DNA from: Escherichia coli
GTDB taxonomy: Bacteria; Pseudomonadota; Gammaproteobacteria; Enterobacterales; Enterobacteriaceae
Assembly (NCBI RefSeq): GCF_048403405.1
Contig: NZ_CP183131.1
Reading direction: 5' to 3' (one strand)
Length of the DNA: 64,000 nucleotides
In this document: piece by piece, positions 86 to 29,534 of the stretch
Layout of the letters: every line of letters begins with the position of its first letter
How positions within the stretch are numbered: position 1 is the first letter of the stretch
The notes under the pieces: generated by a model
The model's database searches: none
Told to the model about the DNA's origin: nothing
Seen by the model: only the letters and a program-made list of their open reading frames with translations
Made by a program: the position numbers and the translations under genes

Positions 86-1845
<1,760 letters not shown>

Positions 1846-1886
1846 AAAAGTGGGCGCTTAGCGCCCGCTTTTCTTCAGGAGTAATC

Positions 1887-2882
1887 ATGACTGATGCAGC
1901 TTTCTATCAACTTGGCCCACTGCGCGAGTATTTAGAAGATCCTACTGTTTTTGAAATTCGCATTAACTGCTTTCAGGAAGTTATCTGTGATACGTTCAGC
2001 GGCCGCAGGGTTGTGCAGAACGCGGCAATTACGGCAGATTTTATTAGGAACCTTGCTAAATCGTTGGTGAGCAGCAACAAGCTGACCATGCAGGCCATTA
2101 ATGACGTGATCCTGCCTGGCGGGATCAGGGGCGTTATCTGTCTGCCCCCTGCGGTGATTGACGGTACAACGGCCGTAGCGTTTCGTAAGGATTTGGCGGC
2201 CGATAAAAATCTGGAGCAGCTGACCAGCGAGGGGATTTTCAGTGACTGCCGGAAGATTACCGGCAGCAAGCAAAGCCTAACGGATGATGATTTTTTCCTT
2301 AAAGAGCTGCACAGCAGCGAAAAATGGCCCGCATTCCTGCAAACCGCCGTTGAGAAGAAACGCACTATCGTGATCTGCGGTGAAACCGGGTCGGGGAAAA
2401 CGGTACTCACGCGCGCGCTGTTAAAATCGCTACATAAAGACGAGCGTGTAATTATTTTAGAGGACGTTCACGAAGTCACGGTCGATCACGTTGTAGAAGC
2501 CGTTTATATGATGTACGGCGATGCAGGAAAGATCGGCCGCGTCAGCGCCACTGATGCCCTGCGAGCCTGTATGCGTCTGACACCGGGCCGTATCATCATG
2601 ACTGAGCTTAGGGATGATGCTGCGTGGGATTATCTTAAAGCACTTAATACCGGCCATCCAGGCGGTGTTATGTCAACGCACGCTAACTCTGCGCGCGATG
2701 CCTTTAACCGTATTGGGCTGCTTATCAAAGCGACCCCTATCGGCCGTATGCTCGATATGAGCGATATTATGCGAATGCTCTACTCCACCATTGACGTTGT
2801 GGTGCATATGGAAAAGCGGAAAATCAAAGAAATTTATTTTGACCCTGAATATAAAATGCAGTGTGTGAACGGGAGCCTGTAA
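1887..2882 (+). CDS. traG: T4SS VirB11-like ATPase (IncN/pKM101-type TraG)
   Basis: 331 aa; Walker A GETGSGKT and conserved VirB11 C-terminal region; sits at the end of the VirB8-11 order. Confidence 0.85.
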   Translation: MTDAAFYQLGPLREYLEDPTVFEIRINCFQEVICDTFSGRRVVQNAAITADFIRNLAKSLVSSNKLTMQAINDVILPGGIRGVICLPPAVIDGTTAVAFRKDLAADKNLEQLTSEGIFSDCRKITGSKQSLTDDDFFLKELHSSEKWPAFLQTAVEKKRTIVICGETGSGKTVLTRALLKSLHKDERVIILEDVHEVTVDHVVEAVYMMYGDAGKIGRVSATDALRACMRLTPGRIIMTELRDDAAWDYLKALNTGHPGGVMSTHANSARDAFNRIGLLIKATPIGRMLDMSDIMRMLYSTIDVVVHMEKRKIKEIYFDPEYKMQCVNGSL

Positions 2883-3415
2883 TGAAAAACTTAGCAACCT
2901 GGCTTCTGGCCGCAGCATTTACGACAGCCGCCCTGCCCGCCTTTGCGGTGGAACCATCCGTTCAGGTTGGCTACTCGCCTGAAGGAAGCGCCCGCGTTCT
3001 CGTCCTGAGCGCCATTGACTCCGCAAAAACCTCGATACGGATGATGGCTTATTCTTTTACCGCCCCGGATATTATGAAGGCACTGGTAGCAGCCAAAAAA
3101 CGGGGAGTTGATGTGAAAATCGTAATTGATGAAAGGGGCAATACGGGGCGCGCCAGCATTGCGGCCATGAACTACATAGCGAACAGCGGCATCCCTTTGC
3201 GTACTGACAGTGATTTCCCTATCCAGCATGACAAGGTGATCATCGTGGATAATGTGACCGTTGAAACTGGCAGCTTTAATTTCACCAAAGCGGCCGAAAC
3301 GAAAAACTCGGAGAATGCGGTGGTGATCTGGAACATGCCTAAGCTCGCTGAATCATTCCTCGAACACTGGCAAGACCGCTGGAATCGGGGGAGAGACTAC
3401 CGTTCCAGCTACTGA
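2882..3415 (+). CDS. nuc: Nuc, periplasmic phospholipase-D-family endonuclease (pKM101 Nuc-like)
   Basis: Signal peptide MKNLATWLLAAAFTTAALPAFA; HxK-type motif region (IQHDKVIIVD); matches pKM101 Nuc from memory; start taken at internal ATG 2882 rather than ORF-track 2861. Confidence 0.85.
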   Translation: MKNLATWLLAAAFTTAALPAFAVEPSVQVGYSPEGSARVLVLSAIDSAKTSIRMMAYSFTAPDIMKALVAAKKRGVDVKIVIDERGNTGRASIAAMNYIANSGIPLRTDSDFPIQHDKVIIVDNVTVETGSFNFTKAAETKNSENAVVIWNMPKLAESFLEHWQDRWNRGRDYRSSY

Positions 3416-3421
3416 ATACTG

Positions 3422-3445
3422 ACCGCCGAAAGGCGGTTTTTTTTG
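3422..3445 (+). terminator. Rho-independent terminator after nuc
   Basis: GC stem ccgccgaaaggcgg followed by a T8 run, immediately after the nuc stop. Confidence 0.6.
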
Positions 3446-3588
3446 TTCAAAGAAACTGATCTCAGTATCGCGCACGGGGCAGCTGGCCAACGTCGCCGGC
3501 ATCGCGCCGGCAAAAATCGAAAAACAGAAATATCAGCAAGATAGCTTAAACAGGTGTCGGGAAATTTCGTTGAGATATTTTGAAGGAA

Positions 3589-3894
3589 TCACAGTGTAAG
3601 CAGGCGGCCTATTTCAAAAAAGGCGGCTGTACGGTAGTCACTGACTCTCTCGCAGATCTTCCCGCTCATGTACCAGTAATACCCGTCAGTGCTGACAATA
3701 TCGAGCAAATACCGCATATCATAAACCGTATCGGGTATTACCTCACCCTCACCGGCCAGAACGCCGCTGGCAATAGAATGGTTCCCTCCTCGTACAAAGC
3801 CTATCCGCCAGGGCAACCACAAAGTAACGCGGTGGTTAATATCCTGTACCCACGGATTGCCCTTAGCGCTGCCTATATGGGGTCTGAGGTCCAA
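3589..3894 (-). CDS. Hypothetical protein (coding strand uncertain; an overlapping plus-strand ORF exists at 3580-3915)
   Basis: ORF only; no family recognised. Confidence 0.2.
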   Translation of the reverse strand: MDLRPHIGSAKGNPWVQDINHRVTLWLPWRIGFVRGGNHSIASGVLAGEGEVIPDTVYDMRYLLDIVSTDGYYWYMSGKICERVSDYRTAAFFEIGRLLTL

Positions 3895-4323: not shown

Positions 4324-5143
4324 GGCACTGTTGCAAATAGTCGGTGGTGATAAACTTATCATCCCCTTTTGCTGATGGAGCTGCACATGAACCCATTCAA
4401 AGGCCGGCATTTTCAGCGTGACATCATTCTGTGGGCCGTACGCTGGTACTGCAAATACGGCATCAGTTACCGTGAGCTGCAGGAGATGCTGGCTGAACGC
4501 GGAGTGAATGTCGATCACTCCACGATTTACCGCTGGGTTCAGCGTTATGCGCCTGAAATGGAAAAACGGCTGCGCTGGTACTGGCGTAACCCTTCCGATC
4601 TTTGCCCGTGGCACATGGATGAAACCTACGTGAAGGTCAATGGCCGCTGGGCGTATCTGTACCGGGCCGTCGACAGCCGGGGCCGCACTGTCGATTTTTA
4701 TCTCTCCTCCCGTCGTAACAGCAAAGCTGCATACCGGTTTCTGGGTAAAATCCTCAACAACGTGAAGAAGTGGCAGATCCCGCGATTCATCAACACGGAT
4801 AAAGCGCCCGCCTATGGTCGCGCGCTTGCTCTGCTCAAACGCGAAGGCCGGTGCCCGTCTGACGTTGAACACCGACAGATTAAGTACCGGAACAACGTGA
4901 TTGAATGCGATCATGGCAAACTGAAACGGATAATCGGCGCCACGCTGGGATTTAAATCCATGAAGACGGCTTACGCCACCATCAAAGGTATTGAGGTGAT
5001 GCGTGCACTACGCAAAGGCCAGGCCTCAGCATTTTATTATGGTGATCCCCTGGGCGAAATGCGCCTGGTAAGCAGAGTTTTTGAAATGTAAGGCCTTTGA
5101 ATAAGACAAAAGGCTGCCTCATCGCTAACTTTGCAACAGTGCC
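4324..5143 (+). mobile_element. IS26: IS26, complete 820 bp (tnp26 4387-5091)
   Basis: 14-bp terminal IRs ggcactgttgcaaa / tttgcaacagtgcc; 234-aa Tnp26 ([18 protein letters not shown]…); different 8-bp flanks, so no TSD. Confidence 0.97.
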
Positions 5144-5377
5144 GTCAAACGCCTCATTGAGCACCGGCAGTAATCCCTCACCTTCATGGGTCAGCACCAG
5201 CCCGCGCGAGACGCGGGTAAACAGCACACAGCCGAGTTGTTCTTCCAGCGCCCTGACCTGCTGGCTGACGGCGGCATGGGTGACATTCAGCTCAATCGCC
5301 GCGCGGGTAAAACTGAGATGACGGGCGGCGGCCTCAAAGGCGCGCAGCGGGTTAAGGGGGAGATAACGTCTGACCAT
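5144..5377 (-). pseudogene. ampR: ampR (LysR-type regulator) 5' remnant, truncated by IS26
   Basis: LysR HTH N-terminus (MVRRYLPLNPLRAFEAAARHLSFTRAA…) fused into IS26 sequence after about 78 codons; downstream of qnrA1 as in ISCR1-qnrA1 modules. Confidence 0.8.
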
Positions 5378-12849: not shown

Positions 12850-13669
12850 GGCACTGTTGCAAAGTTAGCGATGAGGCAGCCTTTTGTCTTATTCAAAGGC
12901 CTTACATTTCAAAAACTCTGCTTACCAGGCGCATTTCGCCCAGGGGATCACCATAATAAAATGCTGAGGCCTGGCCTTTGCGTAGTGCACGCATCACCTC
13001 AATACCTTTGATGGTGGCGTAAGCCGTCTTCATGGATTTAAATCCCAGCGTGGCGCCGATTATCCGTTTCAGTTTGCCATGATCGCATTCAATCACGTTG
13101 TTCCGGTACTTAATCTGTCGGTGTTCAACGTCAGACGGGCACCGGCCTTCGCGTTTGAGCAGAGCAAGCGCGCGACCATAGGCGGGCGCTTTATCCGTGT
13201 TGATGAATCGCGGGATCTGCCACTTCTTCACGTTGTTGAGGATTTTACCCAGAAACCGGTATGCAGCTTTGCTGTTACGACGGGAGGAGAGATAAAAATC
13301 GACAGTGCGGCCCCGGCTGTCGACGGCCCGGTACAGATACGCCCAGCGGCCATTGACCTTCACGTAGGTTTCATCCATGTGCCACGGGCAAAGATCGGAA
13401 GGGTTACGCCAGTACCAGCGCAGCCGTTTTTCCATTTCAGGCGCATAACGCTGAACCCAGCGGTAAATCGTGGAGTGATCGACATTCACTCCGCGTTCAG
13501 CCAGCATCTCCTGCAGCTCACGGTAACTGATGCCGTATTTGCAGTACCAGCGTACGGCCCACAGAATGATGTCACGCTGAAAATGCCGGCCTTTGAATGG
13601 GTTCATGTGCAGCTCCATCAGCAAAAGGGGATGATAAGTTTATCACCACCGACTATTTGCAACAGTGCC
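12850..13669 (-). mobile_element. IS26: IS26, complete 820 bp (tnp26 12902-13606, minus strand)
   Basis: Terminal IRs at 12850-12863 and 13656-13669; identical Tnp26 ORF; inverted relative to the copy at the window start. Confidence 0.97.
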
Positions 13670-13962
13670 GTATCACTCATGGCCTGTTTCGGCTTCACAA
13701 AAAAATGGTTCATTTTGTGCGCAAACGTCCAGCTTTCAGAATCGCCAAAAGCATGAGTGATATAGGTTTCGTCAGGCGCGACAACAATGTGGGTAGCCAC
13801 ACCGGCGATAGCGTCAATTTTGACCACATTAACAGGGTTATAAACAACGCTTTTAATGCGATAGTCATAAGGATAATTGCGGCCAACCTCAAGCGCCATA
13901 ACGTTAGTGGCCGCGCCTCCCAGGACTGACAAAACGACTGCTGAAAGAAGTAGTTTTTTCAT
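13670..13962 (-). pseudogene. traO: traO (VirB9-like), 5' portion including signal peptide; interrupted by IS26
   Basis: MKKLLLSAVVLSVLGGAATNVMA signal peptide then VirB9 N-domain; ORF reads into the IS26 IR; 8-bp gtatcact at the junction. Confidence 0.8.
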
Positions 13963-13972: not shown

Positions 13973-14359
13973 TCAGTTAACTTCAGGGTTGACGCGATAA
14001 CTCGTCACGCGGAAACCCAGCGGGTTGACATAACGCTGCTCAGCATTCATCGCCAGCGATTTATATTCATACCCCATAATGGCAATCCAGCGCTGCGGCT
14101 GATCATCAACGGGATTGCTGCGCACGCGGCGAACCGTAGTAAAGCGTATCGTTGCTACGCCGTGCGGTTTATCGAGGATCACAGAGTTAATCTTCACGCG
14201 GGTCGTTTCACTGTCGCCCAGAACCTTATCAAGACCGTTGCGGCCCTTGAACTTGCTCTGGTAAGACTCTGCCACGTTCGGCGTGGACATTAAGCCAACG
14301 GCCGTTATGCTCTCTAGTTGAACGACGGATCTCTTCCGAAACTCCACGCAAAAAACCAA
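13973..14359 (-). pseudogene. traE: traE (VirB8-like), 3' portion only; 5'-truncated at a recombination junction
   Basis: C-terminal VirB8-type domain (…NPLGFRVTSYRVNPEVN); in-frame stop directly upstream of the first codon; no N-terminal TM region. Confidence 0.6.
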
Positions 14360-14732
14360 TTACATTGGCCCGGAATGTACGTCTCTTCTCCTCTATCTCA
14401 AGCAAGTAACTCAAGTAGAAGTAAAACGGTATCGAGACGAACAATGACAAAGGGAACCAGCCTTTTTCGCTGGCAGAAACAAAGAGTCTCGGCTCAAACA
14501 TTTTCATGGCGAGGGTCGCCATTAGCACAGAGACAACTACTGGAGTCACCGCCATCAAAAATCGGGAATGAAGGTACGCCATCCAGACCCCAGCGACTAA
14601 AGCTGTTAGCGAGAGGAACATAGCAACAACCAACGGGCTCGCATCAATGGCGATTAGCCCTATCTGGACGATAATGACGAAGCAAAGAAGCAATATTCTG
14701 TATAAAAATGACCGCATTCCAACCCACCTCAA
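14360..14732 (-). pseudogene. Multi-TM membrane protein, apparently 3'-truncated and frame-fused to traE-derived sequence
   Basis: 167-aa ORF with 3-4 hydrophobic helices; its last ~40 codons overlap the VirB8 fragment in another frame. Confidence 0.4.
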
Positions 14733-15313
14733 TCCAAGATAATCTTGCGCTTATCTTTCTGAATTTCGATAGGCTGCTCCGGTTCACTCAGAACACCCTC
14801 TGACGCTTTCAGATCTTGAATACTTGGAAAGCCCTTCCCTGCTCCTGCTTTTCTTGGTCTCTGCTCTGTTACCTCAATCGCTATTTCATCCCCCTCCCGG
14901 AACTGCGGGTAACAACCAGCGCGGTTGGCATAGCGATTCAACGACATTTTGAGCAGCCGGTATTTCTTTGGGCAGGTTATTTGTACTGACGCATCAGAGC
15001 TGCAAGCTGCGTCAAGCCGCCGGAAAAATTCCTCCGGTATCCCCTTTACAAGGAGATCGCTCAACTCATCCATAGGCCTTGAGCCGGTTGGCATCGGATA
15101 TGGCAACCTCCGGTATTCTCTGTAGATGTACCGCTTGATGACGATATGAAAGACGAATGCGGCAAAGCCCCACAAAGGGCCATTAAGGAGCCCCGCAACG
15201 ATAAGTAGCACCGACGGGAAGGGAACCCCTACGAAACTCGGCAGGACTTTAATCTTTACCATCGGCGTTGACCGACGCACACTCTCACTCATTTGCTGAC
15301 CCTTTACGTGCAA
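14729..15313 (-). CDS. Membrane-anchored hypothetical protein with C-terminal …PIEIQKDKRKIILD tail
   Basis: One TM segment; the C-terminal 14 aa nearly match the tail of the 16069-17253 product. Confidence 0.5.
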   Translation of the reverse strand: MHVKGQQMSESVRRSTPMVKIKVLPSFVGVPFPSVLLIVAGLLNGPLWGFAAFVFHIVIKRYIYREYRRLPYPMPTGSRPMDELSDLLVKGIPEEFFRRLDAACSSDASVQITCPKKYRLLKMSLNRYANRAGCYPQFREGDEIAIEVTEQRPRKAGAGKGFPSIQDLKASEGVLSEPEQPIEIQKDKRKIILD

Positions 15314-15713
15314 CCTTGTACTGCACTTTCAGATCGTAACCATACACTTCCTGATGAAGGACTTTCACGGGGACACCTTCAACGGTCCCCAGGTACACGC
15401 TCAGCTCAACTTCCGGAACATCGTCCCTGAGACCCAGTACATTGCGCCACCCAGTCGATGTCTTCTGGCAGTGAGCGCCCACCCTGTCATGCCGGTAGTA
15501 AATGTCTTTGTTATCTCCTTGGCAGATGAAGAATCCACTAACCTGCCCCGTCCTTAACACCCACTTGCGGTTGTGGAAGGTAGCTTCTTTCTCCACCTCA
15601 GTGGACTTGTCTATAGCCACCGGGCTTACCACCAGCTCTTGTGCGGCCAAATCAGACACAAGGCCTATTACCAACGCGGATAACAGAGCGGCCATAGCCG
15701 CCCGTGTCATCAT
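15285..15713 (-). CDS. Secreted hypothetical protein, paralogous to the periplasmic domain of the 16069-17253 product
   Basis: Signal peptide; shared pattern KW..L.G…G(F/Y)F(I/V)C.G. Confidence 0.5.
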   Translation of the reverse strand: MMTRAAMAALLSALVIGLVSDLAAQELVVSPVAIDKSTEVEKEATFHNRKWVLRTGQVSGFFICQGDNKDIYYRHDRVGAHCQKTSTGWRNVLGLRDDVPEVELSVYLGTVEGVPVKVLHQEVYGYDLKVQYKVARKGSANE

Positions 15714-16069
15714 ACTGCCGCCTCGTGAGTGGCATCGGCAAAGAATTTGCCTTGTTTGTAGATCTCGTCCTTCTCGAACGAGATAGCATCCGCACGACTG
15801 CTGAATGGGCCATAGCTTTTACCGTCGATCAGCACCTTCCACTGGCAACGCCAAACACGAGTCCATGCCGCAATCTTTGACTCGTCTGAACAAAGTCCGC
15901 GAATAACATAGAACGCAATCATTAGAATGCCGCTCGTCGGCACGATGCGCGAAACCCTTGTTTTACTGTATTCCTGCACTTCAAGGCCTTTGAAGGAAAC
16001 CTCATCGGCAAACCCGCAGACCTCACCATTTTTGATTACGATGCGCTTTTTGCTCATAACCGACCCCAC
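15710..16069 (-). CDS. Hypothetical protein
   Basis: 119-aa ORF, start/stop coupled with neighbours in the same operon. Confidence 0.4.
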   Translation of the reverse strand: MGSVMSKKRIVIKNGEVCGFADEVSFKGLEVQEYSKTRVSRIVPTSGILMIAFYVIRGLCSDESKIAAWTRVWRCQWKVLIDGKSYGPFSSRADAISFEKDEIYKQGKFFADATHEAAV

Positions 16070-17253
16070 TAATCCAAAATAATTTTGCGCTTGCCTGGCT
16101 GTACTTCGATTGGCTCTTCCTTTTGCACCTTTGGTGCCGGAGCTGATGAGCTGACAACCACCGGTTCTCTTTCTGTGTTTTGTTGCTGGCGCTCACGGAG
16201 TTCATCCACTGAGGGAGGCTCATTGCTTGGTCGTTCAGCCCTTTCTGCACGTCGGGCTTCTCTTAACAACTCATCAATTTCGGAGTCGCTCCGGTTATTC
16301 ATAAAAGCTCTATAGGCAAAGAAAATCAGCACCGGTACTATTGCCACCAAGAAGAAAGGAAATGAGCTTCCGCTATCTTCCACTGGCTTGGTACTGGCCG
16401 CGCCTGTATCGAATACGGTACGAATAACCGTTGGCGCGGTCATGATCATAATTGCAGGCATTATCCCCATCACAATTCCTGATGGGCTCTGCCTCATAAT
16501 TCCACTAGCAACCCCAAACACCAGCATCAATCCCGCTATGACTTTGACGAAAGAGCTATCCATTAGACCGATCATGGAGTCACTTACCTCCTCGAACGGA
16601 CTTTGAAACGCACTGGTATTGCGGTCAGTGTCTTGTGCAGCATTAATCTGCTTGGGAGGTTCACTCTTTGGTGCAGTCACTATGGATGACGCTGATTGTT
16701 GGCTGGCAGCCTTCTGCGTTTCACCATCCTGCTTGACCACCCCCAGATCCTGAGTTTTGACGTGCGTTTGTGCTGGTGGTGCTAACTGGTATTTGACTGC
16801 CAGGTTGTTGCCGTGGACTTCAATGGTTTGCAGGGAGATGGGTTTACCTTCCAACTTGGTCAGAGCTTCTTGGAGCGGCAGCTCCTGAGCATCAGTCATA
16901 CCGCCCATAAAGCCATTAAACCCGTCATCATGAATACGGCATCGCAGCCTTCCCGAATAGCTACGGTATTCACCTGGGCAAACAAAATAGCCGCCCTGAG
17001 GGCCATCCAGTTTGCGCCATTTATTGCTTTTGAAGGCCTCCACTTTGGTCACAACTGGCTGACCGTCATGGTAATCAATGACCGTTTTGCTCTCCGGGCC
17101 AGTGTCCTCTATCTTCTTGCTGCCTGAGTCATCTGAGAGCATTTGCCCCACCATAACGCCAGTCACAAAGTCACTGGCAAAGGCCGCAGGAGCTGCGACC
17201 ATGAGACCAACCAGCAAAAGAAGGGGGACGCGCCCTGTCCTTCTCATCACCAT
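16069..17253 (-). CDS. Envelope protein: signal peptide, periplasmic domain, TM helices, charged cytoplasmic tail ending …PIEVQPGKRKIILD
   Basis: 394 aa; domain order inferred from hydrophobicity; start overlaps the upstream DUF2997-like gene stop. Confidence 0.55.
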   Translation of the reverse strand: MVMRRTGRVPLLLLVGLMVAAPAAFASDFVTGVMVGQMLSDDSGSKKIEDTGPESKTVIDYHDGQPVVTKVEAFKSNKWRKLDGPQGGYFVCPGEYRSYSGRLRCRIHDDGFNGFMGGMTDAQELPLQEALTKLEGKPISLQTIEVHGNNLAVKYQLAPPAQTHVKTQDLGVVKQDGETQKAASQQSASSIVTAPKSEPPKQINAAQDTDRNTSAFQSPFEEVSDSMIGLMDSSFVKVIAGLMLVFGVASGIMRQSPSGIVMGIMPAIMIMTAPTVIRTVFDTGAASTKPVEDSGSSFPFFLVAIVPVLIFFAYRAFMNNRSDSEIDELLREARRAERAERPSNEPPSVDELRERQQQNTEREPVVVSSSAPAPKVQKEEPIEVQPGKRKIILD

Positions 17254-17441
17254 TCGTTCTGTTCCGTTTCGTGCTGGGTTTGACCAGCATTGAAGTGGTA
17301 CTCGGGTTTCAGCTCTTTTTCTTCGACTTCGAGCTCTTCCGGGCGAATACGCTGTTCCAGCGCTTCACAGGTCTTACCCTGAAACCCCGTGAAATCGGCA
17401 GCAATCTTGCCGCCCTTGATCTTGATGTTTACCTTTTTCAC
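17247..17441 (-). CDS. Small protein resembling the DUF2997 family
   Basis: 64 aa, MKKVNIKIKGGKIAADFTGFQGKTCEALEQ…; family assignment from memory. Confidence 0.45.
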   Translation of the reverse strand: MKKVNIKIKGGKIAADFTGFQGKTCEALEQRIRPEELEVEEKELKPEYHFNAGQTQHETEQNEW

Positions 17442-17489
17442 TTTGTCACCTCGTCGTTAAGTTCAACTAATCTGATTGCCTTGGCGCTA

Positions 17490-17882
17490 TTACCAAACAG
17501 CTTCCTCAGCTTCCAGTTCCAAAGTGCCATCGTGATGCTGCTTCACCGTCACGCTGAAACCTTCCTCTTTCAACTGCTGCTCGTAGTGGAAGGCAATGTA
17601 GCGATCCTGCACCTTGCTGCTTGCCTGCTGCGTCCAGCGGCCATAAGAGCCGTAGTTTTCCTGGTACTGCTCCCAAACACCGTTTTTTTCCTTGTAGCCA
17701 ATCCGGTGCTCCTTGTTGTTCTGGTCGATCAGAACAATCGGGTATTTCTCGAAGGTGTAGCCAGCGCCCACGCGGTACAGCTTTTCGTTTTCAACAACAA
17801 CGCCAACTCCCTCCAGAGCCTTCAACAGCAGCTCTTTGTCTTTGTAGGCGACCTGCACCTTGCCTTTTACGATATGGCTCAT
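17490..17882 (-). CDS. Protein resembling the DUF1257 family
   Basis: 130 aa, N-terminus MSHIVKGKVQVAYKDKELLLKALEGVG; family assignment from memory. Confidence 0.45.
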   Translation of the reverse strand: MSHIVKGKVQVAYKDKELLLKALEGVGVVVENEKLYRVGAGYTFEKYPIVLIDQNNKEHRIGYKEKNGVWEQYQENYGSYGRWTQQASSKVQDRYIAFHYEQQLKEEGFSVTVKQHHDGTLELEAEEAVW

Positions 17883-17886
17883 CTCA

Positions 17887-18225
17887 TCACTCCTGAGTTG
17901 TTTCGGGTGTCATGCCGTGTTCCGACATAACAAAGTTAAGCGCGGCAATGGAATAGTCTTGCCCGAGAGAAACTTCGATCTTTCCTTCTTTCTCCAGCTT
18001 TCGGCCAAGCTCGGTAAGGTTTTCCATCATGGGGATGAGCTTGAACAACGAACTCATGTAGGTGATCGATGTGGAAACGTCTCGGGCGAACTGGTCCAGC
18101 ACCTTACTCTTGTCGATAACCAGAGGCTCTGGTCTATCCACTCCATCTTTTTCTGACTGGAGTTTGCTGCACAGCTTGAGCAGCTCAATCCCCTTCTCAA
18201 TGTCTTGTTTGTACATAACGGTCAA
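17887..18225 (-). CDS. Hypothetical protein
   Basis: 112-aa ORF between the AAA+ gene and the DUF1257-like gene. Confidence 0.4.
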   Translation of the reverse strand: MTVMYKQDIEKGIELLKLCSKLQSEKDGVDRPEPLVIDKSKVLDQFARDVSTSITYMSSLFKLIPMMENLTELGRKLEKEGKIEVSLGQDYSIAALNFVMSEHGMTPETTQE

Positions 18226-18371
18226 TTCTCCTCTCTGCCGTTTTGATGCTCTCTCCTGGCCGCACCAGCTCGCTCCCTAGCCCACTCAGCTAGAGCATTG
18301 ATTAAGTCGCTGACTTCTGAGTGGAATATCAATGACACAGCAAGAGCAGTCCAAAAAATCCACTCCATCGC

Positions 18372-19835
18372 TTAGTCCTCGATGGCAAGTTTGCGTCCAG
18401 AGCCATTCTGCTCTTGAACATCGAAGTTATTGGCCGGATAGAAGCCTTGATCCCGCAAACTGCGAATCTGGTTGATGTCTTCCCGGCGAGTTTCACTGGT
18501 CGGGGTAATGCGAGTGACCGCATCCACCAGCGCTTCATTGTTGAGCTCTTTGTCCTGAGCGTTCGCCAGATACATCGCGTCAATGACGGCCTGTTCAATC
18601 TCTGCCCCGGTGTATCCCTCGGTGGTACGAAGTAGCGTAGGCATATCGAACGCGGCGATGTTGGCCTTCTGCTTGGCGAGGTGGATCTCAAAAATCTTCT
18701 GGCGCTCAGCCACACTTGGCAGATCAATGAAGAATGCTCGGTCCCAGCGGCCAGCTCGCATCAATTCAGGAGGCAGCGACTGAACCCGGTTGGCCGTCGC
18801 CACAATGAAGATCTTCTTCTTGCGCTCTTGAAGCCAGTAGAGGAAAGAGCCCAGCAGGCGCTTGGATACTTCGTGTTCGCCATCGGCATTACCAAAAAAC
18901 TTCTCCATCTCGTCAATCAACACAACAACGGGTGCGATCTGCTCAATGGTCTGCAATGCACGATTGAACTGGCGCTCGGTTTCACCGAGATACTTGCTAT
19001 AGAAACGGCCCATATCCAGGCGAACCAAGGTAGTGCCAAGTACACCGGCAGCGGCTTTTGCCGTCAGCGATTTACCACCACCAGGTACACCGGCCAGAAG
19101 GACACCTTTTACCGGAAGGTCTTTGTCCCAACCGGCTTTACGTATCTGGAGGAACTCCTTGAGGTTTTCGAGACCACCGACATTCCCAATATCAATGGCC
19201 TCAAGCACATCGAGGCCGACATCACGCAAGATGTGAGCTTTTTCTTTTCGGATCTCGCCCAGGTATTCTTCACCCTTGAATTTCAAGTAAGCGGAGTAGG
19301 TGAAGACGTTCTTCATCTGGGTGTGTGACAAGCCCAAGGCGTGGTTTGCGATGACAGCACGTTCGTTGCTCTCGAAGACTCCACCATCTTTCACGTTATC
19401 TTCACAGGTCTGGAGCAGTTTCAGGATTTCCTGATTGCTCATAGCCGGGAGATCGATGTGATAAACGAACTCTTCATTGAAGACGTCTTTGCCAGCGATG
19501 ATGTAGTTGATCCCCTCATTCTCCAGATAGGTCAGTGATGACTTGAGGGCTGGGAGTGTTTCCGGGTTTGCACGTTGGCGGTCGAAAAAGAAAGTGTCGA
19601 ACACGACAACTCCGTTTTTGGAGGACTTCTTGGACTCGTCCACCATTGCCTTCATCGTGCCTGGATCAGGCAGCTTCTTGAATGGCATTACAATAAAGTG
19701 CTTGCCGACTTTCTTTGCAATGTCAGAGAAAACGCTCTCTGCGCGGCCCAGCTCAAAAGTGCTAACGTTGATGACTGGAAAGGACAACTTGATTGGAATC
19801 TCAAGTTTGTCCATTTGCTGTGTAATATCGCTCAT
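18372..19835 (-). CDS. AAA+ ATPase (Ycf46/CbbX-like, C-terminal AAA module)
   Basis: 487 aa; Walker A GVPGGGKS, Walker B VVLIDEMEKF, arginine-finger region; N-terminal ~230 aa of unknown function. Confidence 0.8.
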   Translation of the reverse strand: MSDITQQMDKLEIPIKLSFPVINVSTFELGRAESVFSDIAKKVGKHFIVMPFKKLPDPGTMKAMVDESKKSSKNGVVVFDTFFFDRQRANPETLPALKSSLTYLENEGINYIIAGKDVFNEEFVYHIDLPAMSNQEILKLLQTCEDNVKDGGVFESNERAVIANHALGLSHTQMKNVFTYSAYLKFKGEEYLGEIRKEKAHILRDVGLDVLEAIDIGNVGGLENLKEFLQIRKAGWDKDLPVKGVLLAGVPGGGKSLTAKAAAGVLGTTLVRLDMGRFYSKYLGETERQFNRALQTIEQIAPVVVLIDEMEKFFGNADGEHEVSKRLLGSFLYWLQERKKKIFIVATANRVQSLPPELMRAGRWDRAFFIDLPSVAERQKIFEIHLAKQKANIAAFDMPTLLRTTEGYTGAEIEQAVIDAMYLANAQDKELNNEALVDAVTRITPTSETRREDINQIRSLRDQGFYPANNFDVQEQNGSGRKLAIED

Positions 19836-19877
19836 CGCTTATCCTTTAAATAAATTTCGACTTGTTGATCACCTCAC

Positions 19878-19906
19878 ATCATAAGTTCATTTTATGATGC
19901 TGTAAA
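19878..19906 (-). promoter_or_regulatory. Putative sigma70 promoter TTTACA-N17-TATGAT upstream of the AAA+ ATPase operon
   Basis: Minus strand: -35 at 19901-19906, -10 at 19878-19883, 43 bp before the start codon. Confidence 0.45.
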
Positions 19907-19908
19907 TA

Positions 19909-20841
19909 TCACCTTCCAACTCTGTAGCTGTTCACGGCGGACTCAACGCGCTTGACTGACACGTCTATACCATTTGTCACCAGCAACTCATGCACTTGGC
20001 AACAGGCCTGTTGTTTCAGGCCAAAGAACTCTTCGTTAACACGGGCATACTCTGCTGCCGAATTGGAGGCGGCTCGTCTTAGATCTGGCATCAGAGATTC
20101 AACGCGAGACTCTACTTTGTCCAGAGAGGAACTGGCAGACGACAAGCTGAACAGCGAGAAGACGCTCCCAAAGTCGAAACCATCATTCAAACCGGCAAAG
20201 TCCATACCCAGATCGATAAACTCAGTTGCCATTGAGTGGTGCAGTGAGCCCACAATGTCACGATGATCCCCCAGCGCATTTGCGAAGGCTTTCACAGCTC
20301 TCTTCGCATCGTCTATTTCACTGCTGGCCGAGGAGTTTGACATCGACGACATGACGGAAATGCCCTTGTTGTCAGTCACAAGGTCGAGAACCTCCATTGT
20401 TTGTGCTGATGAAACACTGGAAGAGGCCTCACTGATTTCACGTAAGGCTTTTTGCCCCATGTCCACCAGTCGCTTGTTGCTCTCGTGGAGTCGAGATGCG
20501 GCGTCAAGCCTATCTTGAGCTTGGGTGATTCGTTCCAGAATCTGGCTACCGTCAATCGCTTGCTTCACGGCCCGAGAAACCAATCCCTCTTTGAGCTGGT
20601 CTCTCCCACGGCGCAAATACCGCAAATCGCTGTTATGGCCTTTTAGTGCTGAACGTATAACGGCGATGTCTCGACGAAACTGCCAGAACGTTATAATTTT
20701 TTGCCAGATCCCCAACTGAGCACGCTGTTGGCAAAGAGCTTCGTACTCTGCACCTTTCTCTTCAACCTGGCTGAGAGCTGCGGTAATCCTGTCTTGATAT
20801 TGCCGGTCGTCAGCCAAGTAACTTTGAATTGCTTGTTCCAT
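19909..20841 (-). CDS. Hypothetical protein (Ser-rich middle region)
   Basis: ORF; ATG at 20841 preferred over the TTG at 20853. Confidence 0.45.
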   Translation of the reverse strand: MEQAIQSYLADDRQYQDRITAALSQVEEKGAEYEALCQQRAQLGIWQKIITFWQFRRDIAVIRSALKGHNSDLRYLRRGRDQLKEGLVSRAVKQAIDGSQILERITQAQDRLDAASRLHESNKRLVDMGQKALREISEASSSVSSAQTMEVLDLVTDNKGISVMSSMSNSSASSEIDDAKRAVKAFANALGDHRDIVGSLHHSMATEFIDLGMDFAGLNDGFDFGSVFSLFSLSSASSSLDKVESRVESLMPDLRRAASNSAAEYARVNEEFFGLKQQACCQVHELLVTNGIDVSVKRVESAVNSYRVGR

Positions 20842-20854
20842 CCCGTACCCCAAA

Positions 20855-20874
20855 AACTTTCACATGTGAAAGTT
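20855..20874. promoter_or_regulatory. Palindromic operator-like site AACTTTCACATGTGAAAGTT (copy 1 of 8)
   Basis: Perfect 20-bp palindrome directly upstream of the 19909-20841 gene. Confidence 0.5.
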
Positions 20875-21035
20875 CATTCTTTCTTTGTTCTGCCAGTACA
20901 AAGTATTTTGCCTTAGAACGACCTCACACCCCGCCCCTGCTCACGCCCATTTTGGGCAATTACAGATTCAGCATTTACAGGCTTATAATGTGATGCCGTA
21001 ATAGACAAATAAAAAACGGCATAGCCGTTTTTACC

Positions 21036-21299
21036 TTACTTTGCTTTGCTCCGGCCCCCGCATAGTGCATTACCAATGCGTGATGAAAAATCCTTCCATT
21101 CTGGACTGTTCCGGTAGTCATCCTGTCCAGTTGCTTGTTCCTGGCTGGTCGATGCGAATTGATTGAGAGCATCCGGGCACGAAGAGCAGACCCCGATACC
21201 TTCCACTCTATTCACGCGAAGCCAGTGACACGGTTGACCGTTTTCAACACAAGCGTGATCATCGGTGCATCCGCACCCTATACATTTAGCAGTGAGCAT
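21036..21299 (-). CDS. Cys-rich small protein, possible zinc-binding
   Basis: 87 aa with CxGCGC…HxC…C…CSSC. Confidence 0.4.
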   Translation of the reverse strand: MLTAKCIGCGCTDDHACVENGQPCHWLRVNRVEGIGVCSSCPDALNQFASTSQEQATGQDDYRNSPEWKDFSSRIGNALCGGRSKAK

Positions 21300-21326
21300 A
21301 AGCGCCTCCCCAAGTAAATTAACAAC

Positions 21327-21355
21327 ATCATAGTATCATTATGTGATGCTGTAAA
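21327..21355 (-). promoter_or_regulatory. Putative sigma70 promoter TTTACA-N17-TATGAT
   Basis: Same architecture and near-identical spacer as the 19878-19906 promoter; 28 bp upstream of the 21299 start. Confidence 0.45.
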
Positions 21356-21402
21356 TATTAAAAAGAAAGCGGCCATAGCCGCCCTTCCGAAGTAATTTTC
21401 CT

Positions 21403-21900
21403 TTAGTGGTTGTCTTGGCCCTGTTTCCAAGCGACGAATGCCTGCACTAGCGGTACGCCATCATCACTCAAGGCATTCCCTTCTATCCATCCGCCTCGTA
21501 TGACGACAGACTGCCCTGATTCCAAGCCAAAAGGTTCCCACTCAGAAGCCACCGGGGAACCGTCCACCAGCAGGTCGAGATCTTCAATCCATTTATCCCG
21601 GCCATCCAGAGTTTTCCAAACTGAGTCATCGACCCAAAAGGCCTTGATTTGTTCTGGTGTGGCATTGGTCCAATCGTTGTCTTTCCCGTCAGCAAGTGAA
21701 AGTACAGAGTCAACCGTTTGCTGCCAGTTCGGCCAATCTTCTTCGACAACAACGCAAGTAAGCGAGCTCTTGCCATTTGCTCTGCGGCCATCATCAACCT
21801 TCCGGATCAGCCTTTCCAGTGTCGCCAGCTCCTCATCGCAGAGCACGGCCTGTGCATCGCTTATCTTTGCCACGAAGTAACGTGCTTCAAGCATCGACAT
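21403..21900 (-). CDS. Hypothetical protein
   Basis: 165-aa ORF. Confidence 0.45.
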   Translation of the reverse strand: MSMLEARYFVAKISDAQAVLCDEELATLERLIRKVDDGRRANGKSSLTCVVVEEDWPNWQQTVDSVLSLADGKDNDWTNATPEQIKAFWVDDSVWKTLDGRDKWIEDLDLLVDGSPVASEWEPFGLESGQSVVIRGGWIEGNALSDDGVPLVQAFVAWKQGQDNH

Positions 21901-21902
21901 AA

Positions 21903-22391
21903 TTATTTTCCTCCCCAGGGCACAAGTTTTGTCGAATATCCAAGCATTAGTGGGTGCTTCGGGTCCCCCGAACCAGTCACGCCAAATGCCAATACCGGCT
22001 TCCCAGATGCAACGAGCTGCTCTAAAAGCCTGTCCAAATGAACATGCAAAGACTTAGGCAGCTTAGTTCGGCTCCCCCAGCAGGGCACCAAGACATCAGC
22101 ATCCCGAATAATCCTTTCCAAGTGGATTTCATTTTCAGGCCCGACAGGATCAACCGCCGTAGCCAGCTCTCGAACGTCGGTCGCCCGAAAAGCAAAAGCA
22201 TTACCGACTATGAATCGCCTCCCTCCGTTGACCTTGGTAAACCCTATCCACTTTCTGACCGTGTGATCGTCCTCGGTGGCCGTGGCCGTAGAGCCGTTTA
22301 CACCAAAATAACCGAACACAAGGCCTTCGGGTTGCACATCCCTTTCCAGACGGTATCTGTACATGCCGCACTTGCTGATAATTGCACTCAA
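21903..22391 (-). CDS. Hypothetical protein, possibly DUF1643-like
   Basis: 162-aa ORF; weak resemblance recalled from memory. Confidence 0.4.
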   Translation of the reverse strand: MSAIISKCGMYRYRLERDVQPEGLVFGYFGVNGSTATATEDDHTVRKWIGFTKVNGGRRFIVGNAFAFRATDVRELATAVDPVGPENEIHLERIIRDADVLVPCWGSRTKLPKSLHVHLDRLLEQLVASGKPVLAFGVTGSGDPKHPLMLGYSTKLVPWGGK

Positions 22392-22481
22392 AGTGTCACC
22401 TCTTTTTGAATGAAAAATGCCCTTTCACAGTTGCATTTTTTAATGCTGTGATAGGATAAAAGTGTAAGTTGAAAAGGAGAG

Positions 22482-22823
22482 ATGACCATGAAACATGTAC
22501 TGAATATCGCGCTGATGGCTGTTGTTATTCTTGGCCTGGCTATGCTTGAGGCCACCAACTGGGGTTACGCAGTGCTGGCTATCCCGGCAGTGATTTGGGC
22601 CAAGTCGGTGCTCAACCTTCTGCACAAACTGCCGGTTCTGGCTGCTGCTTTTTGGATTCTGGTTGCTGTTTTCGCGTGGCAAGCGGCACTTGTTGGTATC
22701 CTGTTCTATGGCGTACTTGCGACCCCTAAAGCGCCAGCAAACACCAATGGCAAGAAAAGCCGAAAAGCCAATCTGATGGGCACTTACAGCTACGACTTTA
22801 AAACCGGCGAATGCTTTAGCTAA
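22482..22823 (+). CDS. Small membrane protein (paralog of 44971-45333)
   Basis: Three hydrophobic helices; N-terminus MKHVLNIALMAVVILGLAM… versus MKHVVNILLLGMVLLGIAM… in the paralog. Confidence 0.55.
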   Translation: MTMKHVLNIALMAVVILGLAMLEATNWGYAVLAIPAVIWAKSVLNLLHKLPVLAAAFWILVAVFAWQAALVGILFYGVLATPKAPANTNGKKSRKANLMGTYSYDFKTGECFS

Positions 22824-22837
22824 GACTGGCTCCACGG

Positions 22838-23317
22838 TTATTTCTCCTCAGCCTTCCTGATGGGCGCTCTCAGCGCTCTCAGGACAGCTTCTTCAAGAGC
22901 TGCGGCCCCTGCCCTATCACGTCGCTTTGTTAATGCCCCATATTGCTTCCTGATGGGTAGCATCAGCTCTTCGAGTTCATTGCGCTTCCTATCGTCGGCT
23001 TCAAGTTTCTCGCTTCGCGCCAAGGCTTCGGCTTGCTCGCTTTTTGCTTGCCACTCTATCTTGTCGCCTTGCACTTCCCATGCTTTAACGTAATGAGCAT
23101 CATCCAGACCTTTTGCTCCGTTGTCCGAAAACGAGGCCCCTGAGTAAATGCCACCGACAACCCAGCGCCTTTTGCTTTTTCCCTTTGAGAAATACATCTC
23201 ACGGCCTAAAACACCATCGCGCAAAGTGGCTACCGAGATAAATAGCCCAGCGTCCCCTTTCCTAAAGCCGCAGAACACAAACTCAAGCGGTTCGTATAAA
23301 TCACTCATGCTGATCAC
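22838..23317 (-). CDS. Hypothetical protein
   Basis: 159-aa ORF. Confidence 0.4.
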   Translation of the reverse strand: MISMSDLYEPLEFVFCGFRKGDAGLFISVATLRDGVLGREMYFSKGKSKRRWVVGGIYSGASFSDNGAKGLDDAHYVKAWEVQGDKIEWQAKSEQAEALARSEKLEADDRKRNELEELMLPIRKQYGALTKRRDRAGAAALEEAVLRALRAPIRKAEEK

Positions 23318-23711
23318 TCCGAAGAACAGACAAGACCTTCTCAGCTCGCTCCTGGAGGTCTATGAGTTCGGCAGCATCATTACCGCTCAATGACATGTCC
23401 CCGCCATAGAGGCGATACTCAACGCTGTCCATCGCCTGGCGAAGCAATCCTAGAAGAGCATTCACGTTTGCCGGTGTTGATAGGGCGACGGCTTCACCTT
23501 TCAGCTCACGTCCATTAAATTCCGACCACTCGGCTATGCCTGTCAGTTCGCAACAATTTGAGCAGGACATACTGGCAACATTCTGGGGATCGTCTGGACA
23601 GTGTTCATTGATGACAAAGTTCATCTCGTCACTGCCGCACTTTCCACAAATGATGTGTACTTTTTTGCCCATGCTGCTGCCCTTAGTGGAGAGTCTGCTC
23701 TTCCACAACAA
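23301..23711 (-). CDS. Hypothetical Cys-rich protein
   Basis: 136-aa ORF with CGKCGS…CSNCC. Confidence 0.4.
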   Translation of the reverse strand: MLWKSRLSTKGSSMGKKVHIICGKCGSDEMNFVINEHCPDDPQNVASMSCSNCCELTGIAEWSEFNGRELKGEAVALSTPANVNALLGLLRQAMDSVEYRLYGGDMSLSGNDAAELIDLQERAEKVLSVLRSDQHE

Positions 23712-23877
23712 TCATCCCGTCAACCAAGCTGATTGTGGCGGGACCGCAGTTACCCAGCACCTCAGCTTTGACTCCGTTGTTCAACGCGACATAAAGCCGT
23801 CTCGCCCCGTTGGTGACGCGGATGCCTTTCTGGTCGAGTTGTTCAAGCATTTCTTCGTAGGTAATTTTTTCGTCCAT
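23683..23877 (-). CDS. Hypothetical small protein
   Basis: 64-aa ORF. Confidence 0.3.
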   Translation of the reverse strand: MDEKITYEEMLEQLDQKGIRVTNGARRLYVALNNGVKAEVLGNCGPATISLVDGMIVVEEQTLH

Positions 23878-24128
23878 CAGTTCTCCTCAGCAAGGATCTC
23901 GTCGATGAGGTTCTTTGCTATCAATCTGGCATCCAAAGGGACAGCCAGGCTGTCAATTCTGCCTCTTTCATGGGCAACAATGAGTTGCGCCTTCCAAGCT
24001 ATCCCGGAAAGAGAAGCATCAGGTTCTTTACCTGAGCTTCTCATACATCTTGCGTTTCGGTACGCCGCCAGCCACTCAGGTCTGGTTGAGTTATAACGCC
24101 CAAGGCCAGCTTTTCGTTGGAAGCACAT
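23877..24128 (-). CDS. Hypothetical small protein
   Basis: 83-aa ORF; palindromic site and promoter-like motif upstream. Confidence 0.3.
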   Translation of the reverse strand: MCFQRKAGLGRYNSTRPEWLAAYRNARCMRSSGKEPDASLSGIAWKAQLIVAHERGRIDSLAVPLDARLIAKNLIDEILAEEN

Positions 24129-24140
24129 TCATCGCGCACC

Positions 24141-24169
24141 TTTACAGATTCATTTTATGATACTGTAAA
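24141..24169 (-). promoter_or_regulatory. Promoter-like palindromic element TTTACAG-N15-CTGTAAA
   Basis: Shares the catcattttatgat spacer with the other recurrent promoters. Confidence 0.35.
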
Positions 24170-24191
24170 CAATAAAAAGACACCTTGCAAG

Positions 24192-24210
24192 ACTTTCACA
24201 TGTGAAAGTT
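24192..24210. promoter_or_regulatory. Palindromic operator-like site ACTTTCACATGTGAAAGTT (copy 2 of 8)
   Basis: Between 24218-24766 and 23877-24128. Confidence 0.5.
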
Positions 24211-24217
24211 TTCTGGT

Positions 24218-24766
24218 TTACATCTGCTCGCTTGGATCAAACCCCAAAGCCTTGCACACGTCATCCAGGTCATCGAGCGTGAAGAATCCCAGCGTCAGTT
24301 CCCCGGAGCGCTTCGCGGGGTTATAGCGAACTTTGATAGGCCTACCCGTAGCATCGCTCATCAGGGTCTCCAGGCGCTTAATGTCTGCATCCCTGTCCAC
24401 TTCTTTGCCCTTCGCTATCGCCTCAAATTTATGAACCGGTGTCCTGGTATGCAGGAGATCCCTCAGGAGCTTTTCTCTCTTGCTGAAAGGTAACTTAGCC
24501 ACGGCCCTCACATGCCCCAGGGTGATCTTGCGTGGATTTCTGAGCCAGAGTGTTAGCTCTTCCTCCGATAGCGTACCGGCGCGTTTCAGGTGTGTAACCG
24601 TATAGACCTTCTCAATACCCAGATCCTCTCTGATCTGACTGTTTGAACGCCCCTCTCCGCTTAGGAACGCGACCACATAGGCCTTTTCTGCATCAGTCAT
24701 GCCTGGATGCTGGTGGTAGTAGTCAATGGCTTCTCTTGCATCGAGCAGTAGGGGTAGGTTGTTCAT
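24218..24766 (-). CDS. Putative HTH DNA-binding protein, weakly ParB/KorB-like
   Basis: 182 aa; segment …ITLGHVRAVAKLP… resembles the ParB GHARAL region; low certainty. Confidence 0.4.
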   Translation of the reverse strand: MNNLPLLLDAREAIDYYHQHPGMTDAEKAYVVAFLSGEGRSNSQIREDLGIEKVYTVTHLKRAGTLSEEELTLWLRNPRKITLGHVRAVAKLPFSKREKLLRDLLHTRTPVHKFEAIAKGKEVDRDADIKRLETLMSDATGRPIKVRYNPAKRSGELTLGFFTLDDLDDVCKALGFDPSEQM

Positions 24767-24928
24767 TCAGGACACCTTTTAGTCACATGACTATATCGAG
24801 GCTTATTCTACCCCCTATTTTAGTCACATGACTACTTACTGACATTTCGGCCCCCATCGCCGCCGATTTTTCTTGATTATAGGTTTGAATCTATATAGGA
24901 TTGCACCTATATTAAGTAAGGAGAAATC

Positions 24929-25279
24929 ATGTGGGTCATCGAGACAACCGACACCTTTGATGAGTGGTTCGATGCTCTGGATGATACCGATAGAGCAAAC
25001 GTGCTGGCTTCGATGATGGTGCTGCGAGATAGAGGCCCCATGCTGTCGAGGCCATACGCGGATACTGTTAACGGTTCATCCTACAGCAACATGAAAGAGC
25101 TTCGGGTCCAAAGCAAAGGAGATCCTATCAGAGCGTTCTTTGCGTTCGATCCAAAGCGTAAGGGGATTCTTCTCTGCGCCGGTAACAAGACCGGGGACGA
25201 GAAAAGGTTTTATGAAGTAATGATCCCAATTGCAGACCGTGAGTTTGCGGCGCACTTGGATAAATTGAAGAAGGAGTGA
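24929..25279 (+). CDS. higB: Type II toxin, RelE/HigB-like
   Basis: 116 aa; followed 4 bp later by an XRE-HTH antitoxin gene (toxin-first order typical of HigBA). Confidence 0.65.
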   Translation: MWVIETTDTFDEWFDALDDTDRANVLASMMVLRDRGPMLSRPYADTVNGSSYSNMKELRVQSKGDPIRAFFAFDPKRKGILLCAGNKTGDEKRFYEVMIPIADREFAAHLDKLKKE

Positions 25280-25283
25280 CGTT

Positions 25284-25586
25284 ATGGCAAGAACTCTTGA
25301 CCAAATGCTGGCAACAGAAAAGCCTGAGGTTGTTGCCAAAGCACAGAAAGCGGCCACTGAGATGTTACTGAACATCCACTTGGCAGAGCTTCGTGATCGC
25401 ATGAACCTTACCCAGGGGGAAATTGCTGCATCTCTGGGTGTGAGACAGCCGACAGTCTCCGAGATGGAAAAACCTGGACGAGATCTCAAGCTGTCGTCCA
25501 TTAAGCGGTACGTTGAGGCCTCCGGTGGCAAGCTACGCCTCGATGTTGAACTTCCGGACGGCACCCACTACGGCTTTGCCGTTTAA
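25284..25586 (+). CDS. higA: Type II antitoxin, XRE-family HTH (HigA-like)
   Basis: 100 aa; HTH LTQGEIAASLGVRQPTVSEMEK. Confidence 0.65.
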   Translation: MARTLDQMLATEKPEVVAKAQKAATEMLLNIHLAELRDRMNLTQGEIAASLGVRQPTVSEMEKPGRDLKLSSIKRYVEASGGKLRLDVELPDGTHYGFAV

Positions 25587-25612
25587 CTCGATACGCCCCG
25601 TTATGGGGCGTA

Positions 25613-25906
25613 TTACTTCTCTTGCTCTTCTTCCAGCCGTTTTCGGTATATCTCTCCTGCACGTTCCCTGCCATCGTCGGTCAGCCTAAAGGCCAGCTTT
25701 AGAGAAGCATTCCGGTACTTGTTCAACAGGCCGTTCTCCACCAGCGTGTGGCATGACGTTCGGAAGTTCGTTCCATGAATACCGCTCTGGCGAGCTGAAT
25801 TGATCATCTCCAGTATTTTTACACCTGGTACAGGCTCGGCTTTTCCACCGGCCTCAATTGCGTATAGAATGAACAAAACGTCTTTTTGAGTTGACGACAA
25901 TCTCAT
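25613..25906 (-). CDS. Hypothetical protein
   Basis: 97-aa ORF. Confidence 0.35.
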   Translation of the reverse strand: MRLSSTQKDVLFILYAIEAGGKAEPVPGVKILEMINSARQSGIHGTNFRTSCHTLVENGLLNKYRNASLKLAFRLTDDGRERAGEIYRKRLEEEQEK

Positions 25907-25993
25907 CCCTTCCCCTTATTCATGTCTGATATGAATAAGGCTCCCACGAAGGAGCCTTATGTAAACCTTATTCATGTGTCACATGATTAAGAT

Positions 25994-26266
25994 CTAGTTC
26001 ACGGAGTCTTTCAACCCCTTACCAGCTTTGAACCCAGGAATGTTGGCCGCCGCGATCTGGATGTTCTCTCCAGTCTGGGGATTCCGCCCGGTTCGCGCTG
26101 CGCGTTCCTTAACGTGGAAAGTACCAAACCCAGTGAGCGCTACTGTCCCACCCGCTTTAAGCTCCTCTGTCACTGAGTTGATCAGCGCATTTACCGCAGC
26201 TTCGGCCTTTGCTTTGCTAATGTCAGCGTCTTCGGCCACTTTCATAATCAGTTCACTTTTGTTCAT
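25994..26266 (-). CDS. HU-family nucleoid-associated DNA-binding protein
   Basis: 90 aa, [67 protein letters not shown]…. Confidence 0.85.
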
Positions 26267-26323
26267 CGTTATTCCTGTTTGTTTTCTTGGTTACTGTTTA
26301 CACCTGCATACTCTGGGGTGTGG

Positions 26324-26920: not shown

Positions 26921-27081
26921 CCACCTTGCTGTCTACGATTCGACAGGCATCCCAGTTAAGAGATGACCAGTGAGCAATGGCAGAGGCCAACCAGTACCAC
27001 GGTGCCGTAAACACCGGCTGGCCCCCTTCCTTCGTTTTAAATACCTGGTATCGCATGTTGATCCTCCTGTTTGGGTGAGGC

Positions 27082-27984: not shown

Positions 27985-28156
27985 CGGCCCAGCGAAGGGC
28001 GTCTCCCATATGCGTGAAAGCGCGTTTATTGTTATCCTGCTTATTCACCCTGACCGGCGTCTTTTGGTCACGAGGCTGTAGTAGCCAGTACCCGGCCTCT
28101 TCCCTGATTAGTTCTGCGGCCACCAGAAAGCCGTTCTTCGTTGCAATGATCATCAT
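27926..28156 (-). CDS. Hypothetical small protein
   Basis: 76-aa ORF. Confidence 0.3.
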   Translation of the reverse strand: MMIIATKNGFLVAAELIREEAGYWLLQPRDQKTPVRVNKQDNNKRAFTHMGDALRWAGDPELAKQFDAEGEEHANS

Positions 28157-29476: not shown

Positions 29477-29515
29477 AGATTCACCTCATAGTGAAATCAG
29501 GCCCCGGAGAGCCTG

Positions 29516-29534
29516 ACTTTCACATGTGAAAGTT
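29516..29534. promoter_or_regulatory. Palindromic operator-like site (copy 3 of 8)
   Basis: actttcacatgtgaaagtt. Confidence 0.5.

Follow-up and report, generated by a model that had tools for sequence, protein, structure and literature searches.

The window analysed here, a stretch of 64,000 nucleotides from Escherichia coli contig NZ_CP183131.1, is part of an IncC (A/C2) multiresistance plasmid in which transfer DNA of IncN origin is fused directly to the IncC backbone. Comparison with plasmids of both parental types indicated that this joint is, with high probability, a fixed scar left in an IncC plasmid by a single ancestral recombination or deletion that did not depend on homology (illegitimate), and not an active element. 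The junction is already known, and is an ordinary lineage marker.

Position and structure of the joint

The boundary was determined by PLSDB searches and three-way alignments, which placed the last IncN base at 14305 and the first IncC base at 14306. Two queries were used, one covering window positions 13671-14420 and the other consisting of 120 bp centred on the joint. With the first, IncN plasmids aligned over query positions 1-635 only (the window up to 14305) and IncC plasmids free of the fragment over 636-750 only (the window from 14306). With the second, IncN-only matches ended at position 60 and IncC-only matches began at 61. The first-pass annotation, made from the sequence alone, had set the join at about 14360, some 55 bp away from the true boundary; the traE reading frame meets an in-frame TAA there, but 14306-14359 is IncC DNA. 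The features that meet at the joint are the following:

14305..14306, no strand: IncN-IncC junction; the window reads GGCCGT/TATGC, the IncN parent GGCCGT/ATAG and the IncC parent ATCTC/TATGC
13973..14305, minus strand: what remains of IncN traE (VirB8; 232 aa when complete), codons 123-232 and the stop codon at 13973-13975 (protein alignment, Pfam)
14306..14362, minus strand: IncC DNA, not traE, that prolongs the traE frame by 18 codons (14306-14359) to the TAA at 14360-14362
14229..14717, minus strand: 162-aa hybrid ORF that starts with the ATG at 14717 (aligned to the complete pPV835TEM24 and pKPC_CAV1344 ORFs)
14306..39194, minus strand: IncC backbone from the junction to the repA start, 99.99% identical to pIncC-L121 and pPV835TEM24

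Across the break, the IncN parent pIMP-GZ1058 reads AACGGCCGT/ATAGTC, the IncC parents pKPC_CAV1344 and pPV835TEM24 read GATCTC/TATGCTC, and the window reads AACGGCCGT/TATGCTC. The kind of check proposed in the earlier annotation, an alignment to IncN traE and to related backbone plasmids, was carried out with pIMP-GZ1058 and these IncC plasmids, and besides fixing the breakpoint it revealed a blunt joint with neither microhomology (0 nt) nor filler (0 nt); the trinucleotide TAT occurs in both parents at the break, one base out of register. A search of the joint for IS ends and for inverted or direct repeats found none of significance, which agrees with the earlier description of a join free of IS elements and inverted repeats.

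Gene remnants on either side of the joint

The 128-codon ORF at 13973-14359 (minus strand) is a homologue of the Pfam VirB8 family (PF04335; 77.3 bits, cut-off 23.2, E 2e-21) but matched only the C-terminal part of the profile, positions 100-213 of 213. A full VirB8 protein (profile positions ~7-213) starts with a cytoplasmic segment, crosses the membrane with a single helix and has an entire NTF2-like domain in the periplasm, so that an ORF restricted to this part of the profile and to TraE residues 123-232 is not a full-length member. Residues T123-N232 (110 codons) were 100% identical to TraE of pIMP-GZ1058. About 128 C-terminal codons of the VirB8-like gene had been counted by the first-pass annotation; the remnant is indeed C-terminal and the in-frame stop described directly upstream is the TAA at 14360-14362, but only 110 of the codons are traE, the first 18 being IncC DNA into which the frame extends by chance. 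The 5' part of IncN traE, upstream of the breakpoint, was absent from the whole window, and the remnant is a pseudogene fragment rather than a functional VirB8 member.

On the opposite side, the hybrid ORF consists of residues 1-137 of a 189-aa IncC protein followed by 25 out-of-frame traE residues (167 aa, 14229-14732, when read from the TTG at 14732). It is hydrophobic, lies in a frame offset by 1 from the traE ORF and reaches 77 nt into traE-derived DNA, in line with the earlier remark that an upstream ORF enters traE in another frame. A Pfam search of the hybrid ORF returned no family and no VirB8 similarity. The native C-terminal 52 residues, RDKRKIILD included, were lost; in the hydropathy plot the intact 189-aa protein (WP_001256126/8) is hydrophobic over its N-terminal half and carries charges in its tail, which ends in RDKRKIILD. 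In the public annotation of related plasmids, the hybrid ORF is a hypothetical protein of 162 aa (WP_001256127.1) and the traE remnant a "type IV secretion system protein" of 105 aa (WP_011742556.1). The two calls overlap by 62 nt, and both are artefacts of the joint and not functional genes.

Intact IncC backbones (pKPC_CAV1344 and pPV835TEM24) carry the 189-aa ORF, then 2 nt and a 181-aa ORF, and beyond these a ParB-like gene, small ORFs and a DNA methyltransferase gene, all co-directional. The earlier statement that the join truncates the last gene of a candidate operon is therefore correct as to the truncation and not as to the gene being the last, since the 181-aa ORF, the ParB-like gene and others come after it in intact IncC plasmids. 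pPV835TEM24 aligned only from the equivalent of 14306 onwards, and 4,481 bp between the joint and the boundary of the ARI-B resistance island are missing from the window, where this ~4.48 kb of IncC backbone was also sought elsewhere and was absent.

Further analysis of this gene string revealed a C-terminal motif, [G/D]KRKIILD, common to three hydrophobic IncC proteins of the same co-directional string: a 394-aa protein (16069-17253), a 194-aa protein (14729-15313) and the intact 189-aa ORF. The motif sites in the window are 14729-14749 and 16069-16089, the third copy having been removed by the junction. None of the three proteins matched a Pfam family or any family above its cut-off, and residues 217-281 of the 394-aa protein were weakly TraA-like (NCBIfam, 45.9 bits with a cut-off of 50). 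An Rfam scan of 13000-16000 gave zero matches at E up to 1, and a promoter and terminator scan of 13600-17600 gave no signal beyond shuffled expectation.

The resistance region and its IS26 inversion

A mosaic resistance region occupies the window to the left of 14306. It includes a complex class 1 integron with intI1, dfrA12, aadA2, qacEdelta1, sul1, ISCR1 and qnrA. Six IS26 copies or ends were found in the window (1-85, 4324-5145, 12850-13669 and three beyond 56 kb). The IncN-derived DNA and the IS26 elements that bound it are arranged as follows:

1..85, plus strand: terminal part of another IS26, which delimits the inverted segment (IS26 matches)
86..3878, plus strand: remainder of the IncN fragment, with the traO 3' part, traF/virB10, traG/virB11, nuc/PLD and a DUF6710 gene (collinearity, ORF list)
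4324..5145, plus strand: IS26 at the distal limit of the IncN-derived segment, a position it also has in relatives without the inversion (IS26 matches)
12850..13669, minus strand: IS26 abutting the traO 5' fragment (820-bp match, 100% identity)
13670..13677, no strand: 8-bp IS26 target GTATCACT, which maps to pIncC-L121 25518-25525
13670..13962, minus strand: 5' fragment of traO (VirB9), 97 codons and 2 nt long, interrupted by IS26 (Pfam CagX/VirB9)

The IncN fragment is thus split. The traO 5' fragment, 99.8% identical to pIMP-GZ1058, stops at the IS26 whose terminal repeat TTTGCAACAGTGCC ends at 13669, and the part at 86-3878, collinear with pIMP-GZ1058 up to 3878 where IncN matches end, is inverted relative to 13670-14305. 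The attribution of the tra fragment to IncN in the first-pass annotation was correct, but the 636 bp next to the joint are a small share of a fragment of ~4.4 kb, the rest of which lies at 86-3878. Window positions 86-5152 were collinear with pIncC-L121 25518-30586 and positions 13670-39194 with 25525-1, so that the two pieces overlap by 8 bp in pIncC-L121 and flank inversely oriented IS26 copies in the window. The reverse complement of the target GTATCACT, AGTGATAC, is found at 86-93 and also maps to pIncC-L121 25518-25525. An inverse IS26 pair with an 8-bp target inverted at the outer boundaries is what intramolecular replicative transposition leaves, and on this sequence evidence the split of the IncN fragment is the signature of such a transposition of IS26 into traO. 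The inverted segment measures ~12.8 kb and contains the IncN remainder, an IS26 and the qnrA-ISCR1-class 1 integron region. The inversion would have occurred later than the formation of the scar, leaving 636 bp of IncN DNA beside it.

Within the inverted segment, qnrA (218 aa; NCBIfam QnrA, 513.8 bits) adjoins the ISCR1 transposase gene at window positions 5563-8024, downstream of the sul1-type class 1 integron. The ~445 bp at 3879-4323, between the end of IncN homology and IS26, are not IncN backbone and match an ArsR/SmtB-regulator context found beside IS26 in many plasmids. In NC_025019.1 (65.5 kb, IS1-interrupted) the same IncN sequence runs into most of 3879-4323, which hints at the kind of donor plasmid. 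In the IncC backbone, a segment of ~424 bp at 17943-18367 (small ORFs 17887-18225 and 18222-18368) occurs in the window and in pPV835TEM24 and is missing from pKPC_CAV1344, to which the backbone on its flanks shows an identity of only ~98.6%. An IncC backbone resembling type 2, perhaps with the "i1" marker, would account for this segment and for the divergence of its flanks.

Spread, origin and comparison with known IncC plasmids

The identical 120-bp junction was found in 193 PLSDB plasmids (191-193 records across the searches, at 99.6-100% identity), and among the matches listed, those spanning the joint were 100% identical over the 120-bp query and came from Klebsiella, Escherichia, Proteus, Citrobacter, Salmonella and Vibrio cholerae. 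It was also present in 16 of the 5,426 complete E. coli genomes, one of these records coming from a conjugation assay. The junction is therefore neither a chance nor an assembly feature, and its identity across the PLSDB records and E. coli genomes indicates that it most likely arose once and has been inherited since. A variant of ARI-B that combines a tra segment derived from IncN with the loss of 4,477 bp of backbone has been published (Zhang et al., PMC7652850) for plasmids pEC9-2, pKC3-1/2b and pCC1-1/2b; that paper credits the earlier characterisation of the variant to Harmer and Hall 2015 (Plasmid). The window, with its IncC-IncN tra junction and ~4.48 kb of backbone missing up to ARI-B, carries this variant, and pEC9-2 (NZ_MT559992.1), whose joint is identical to that of the window, was among the best matches. 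The 4-bp gap between the 4,481 bp measured here and the published 4,477 bp probably reflects where the boundary between ARI-B and GIsul2 is drawn.

The absence of homology at the break bears directly on how the joint was made. Homologous exchange by RecA between IncN and IncC backbone DNA, which the first-pass annotation had offered beside illegitimate recombination, calls for a parental stretch shared at the crossover. The parents have 0 nt in common there; within +/-400 bp of the break (800 bp per parent) no significant similarity was detected, the chance exact matches being of at most 9 nt (E at least 1.9) with none in register, and TraE and the 189-aa IncC protein are unrelated. This half of the earlier claim is excluded on these grounds, the residual probability being very close to nil, and the illegitimate half is the best fit. 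Refuted as well, with a probability lower still, is the reading in which the upstream ORF is the true VirB8 N-terminus split by a sequencing frameshift, or the joint an assembly chimera. The two ORFs do overlap, co-directionally and one frame apart, but the 189-aa protein is complete, with another C-terminus, in IncC plasmids that have no IncN DNA, the upstream ORF has no Pfam VirB8 match and the genuine TraE residues 1-122 are unrelated to it. Moreover, no IncN DNA from upstream of the breakpoint is present in the window, and the joint recurs in 193 plus 16 independently sequenced records. The finding that the earlier annotation had named as fatal to its reading, an upstream ORF that is the N-terminus of a VirB8 homologue, was accordingly not made.

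Formation of the joint by a mobile element, through an IS26 adjacent deletion, ISCR/IS91-type one-ended rolling-circle transposition stopping in traE or imprecise excision of an IS formerly at the joint, is improbable, even though IS-mediated backbone deletions beside ARI-B are common (PMC7652850), the window holds six IS26 and ISCR1, relatives carry ISVsa3 and other IS91-family elements, and an IS26 bounds the far end of the IncN-derived segment. The IS26 terminus GGCACTGTTGCAAA is absent directly at the joint, 0 extra bases separate IncN from IncC DNA, and the nearest IS26 end, at 13669, is 636 bp off (~4.9 kb in uninverted relatives such as pIncC-L121). IS26-mediated deletions and cointegrates, in contrast, always leave IS26 at the new joint. 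Against an IS91/ISCR origin, neither GTTC nor CTTG directly abuts the joint, and in the IncC parent the closest CTTG lies 5 nt away. In pIncC-L121 the other boundary of the island is the canonical sul2 end near parA, which argues that the island was not inserted as a unit at the joint. A secondary site of the integron integrase (GTTRRRY) at the joint was judged by eye and rejected, the parents lacking the required overlap.

Illegitimate recombination would then have proceeded through a capture and a deletion. First, the ARI-B island of an IncC plasmid, which contained sul2, would have acquired through IS26 either a whole IncN plasmid or a part of one bounded by IS26; IS26-mediated capture into ARI-B is the likely route of entry, since an IS26 forms the far limit of the IncN-derived segment. 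A RecA-independent deletion would next have joined IncN traE, broken between codons 122 and 123, to the IncC 189-aa gene, broken after codon 137 plus 1 nt. Lost in this step would be all remaining IncN plasmid DNA on that side, together with the end of ARI-B on the integrase side and ~4.48 kb of the IncC backbone. The products would be a dead traE remnant and an IncC ORF with a scrambled C-terminus, passed on by vertical inheritance and conjugative spread. The window begins inside the island (IS26 1-85) and the sul2/parA end lies outside it; in pIncC-L121 the other island end is sul2 followed by parA-proximal backbone, and this normal arrangement suggests that the island sits at the canonical ARI-B site with only its other side replaced. 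We infer the order, cointegrate first and deletion second, from the product. A blunt 0-nt joint by itself names no enzyme, and end joining, topoisomerase/gyrase subunit exchange or template switching may have produced it, as may a microhomology-primed event with a 1-nt addition, given the offset TAT of the parents.

The joint is a handy single-event marker of one widespread lineage of type 2 and hybrid IncC multiresistance plasmids, and as a neutral-looking lineage scar it has little significance beyond bookkeeping. Plasmids bearing the junction were typed as conjugative, and this, together with the record from a conjugation assay, suggests that IncC plasmids can be maintained and transferred without the ~4.48 kb of backbone and without the C-terminal part of the 189-aa membrane protein. 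In the uninverted form the IncN fragment and the IncC gene string to which it is fused run in the same direction, so that in the uninverted ancestor traO-traF-traG-nuc could possibly have been read through from an IncC promoter. It is very unlikely that the fusion has been kept in ~200 plasmids for an advantage, whether from the IncN proteins or from the loss of the 4.48 kb and the KRKIILD tail; if so, it would be more than a neutral scar and might, for example, interfere with co-resident IncN plasmids.

When compared to IncN traE and traO of the pKM101/R46 type, the remnant matches TraE residues 123-232 of pIMP-GZ1058 completely at the protein level and at ~99.8% in DNA, but it lacks the cytoplasmic N-terminus, the transmembrane part and roughly half of the periplasmic domain, and it inherited neither a promoter nor a start of its own. 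IS26-mediated deletions flanking ARI-A and ARI-B in IncC plasmids, such as the common 10,984-bp deletion (PMC7652850), likewise remove backbone beside the island, in the general region upstream of parA; those deletions end at IS26, whereas that of the window ends in a naked IncN-IncC joint. The closest relatives are the plasmids with the ARI-B/IncN variant (pEC9-2, pKPHS3, pT212 and pIncC-L121), which share the same junction, the truncated traE, the truncated 189-aa ORF and a backbone loss of equal extent. In pIncC-L121 the IncN fragment is intact (traE remnant, traO, traF, traG and nuc) and followed by IS26, while in the window, as in pEC9-2 and phs-IMP8_HS-1097, IS26 is inserted in traO. In the window only 636 bp of IncN DNA are left at the joint, with the remainder and the qnrA-ISCR1-sul1-aadA2-dfrA12 segment inverted.
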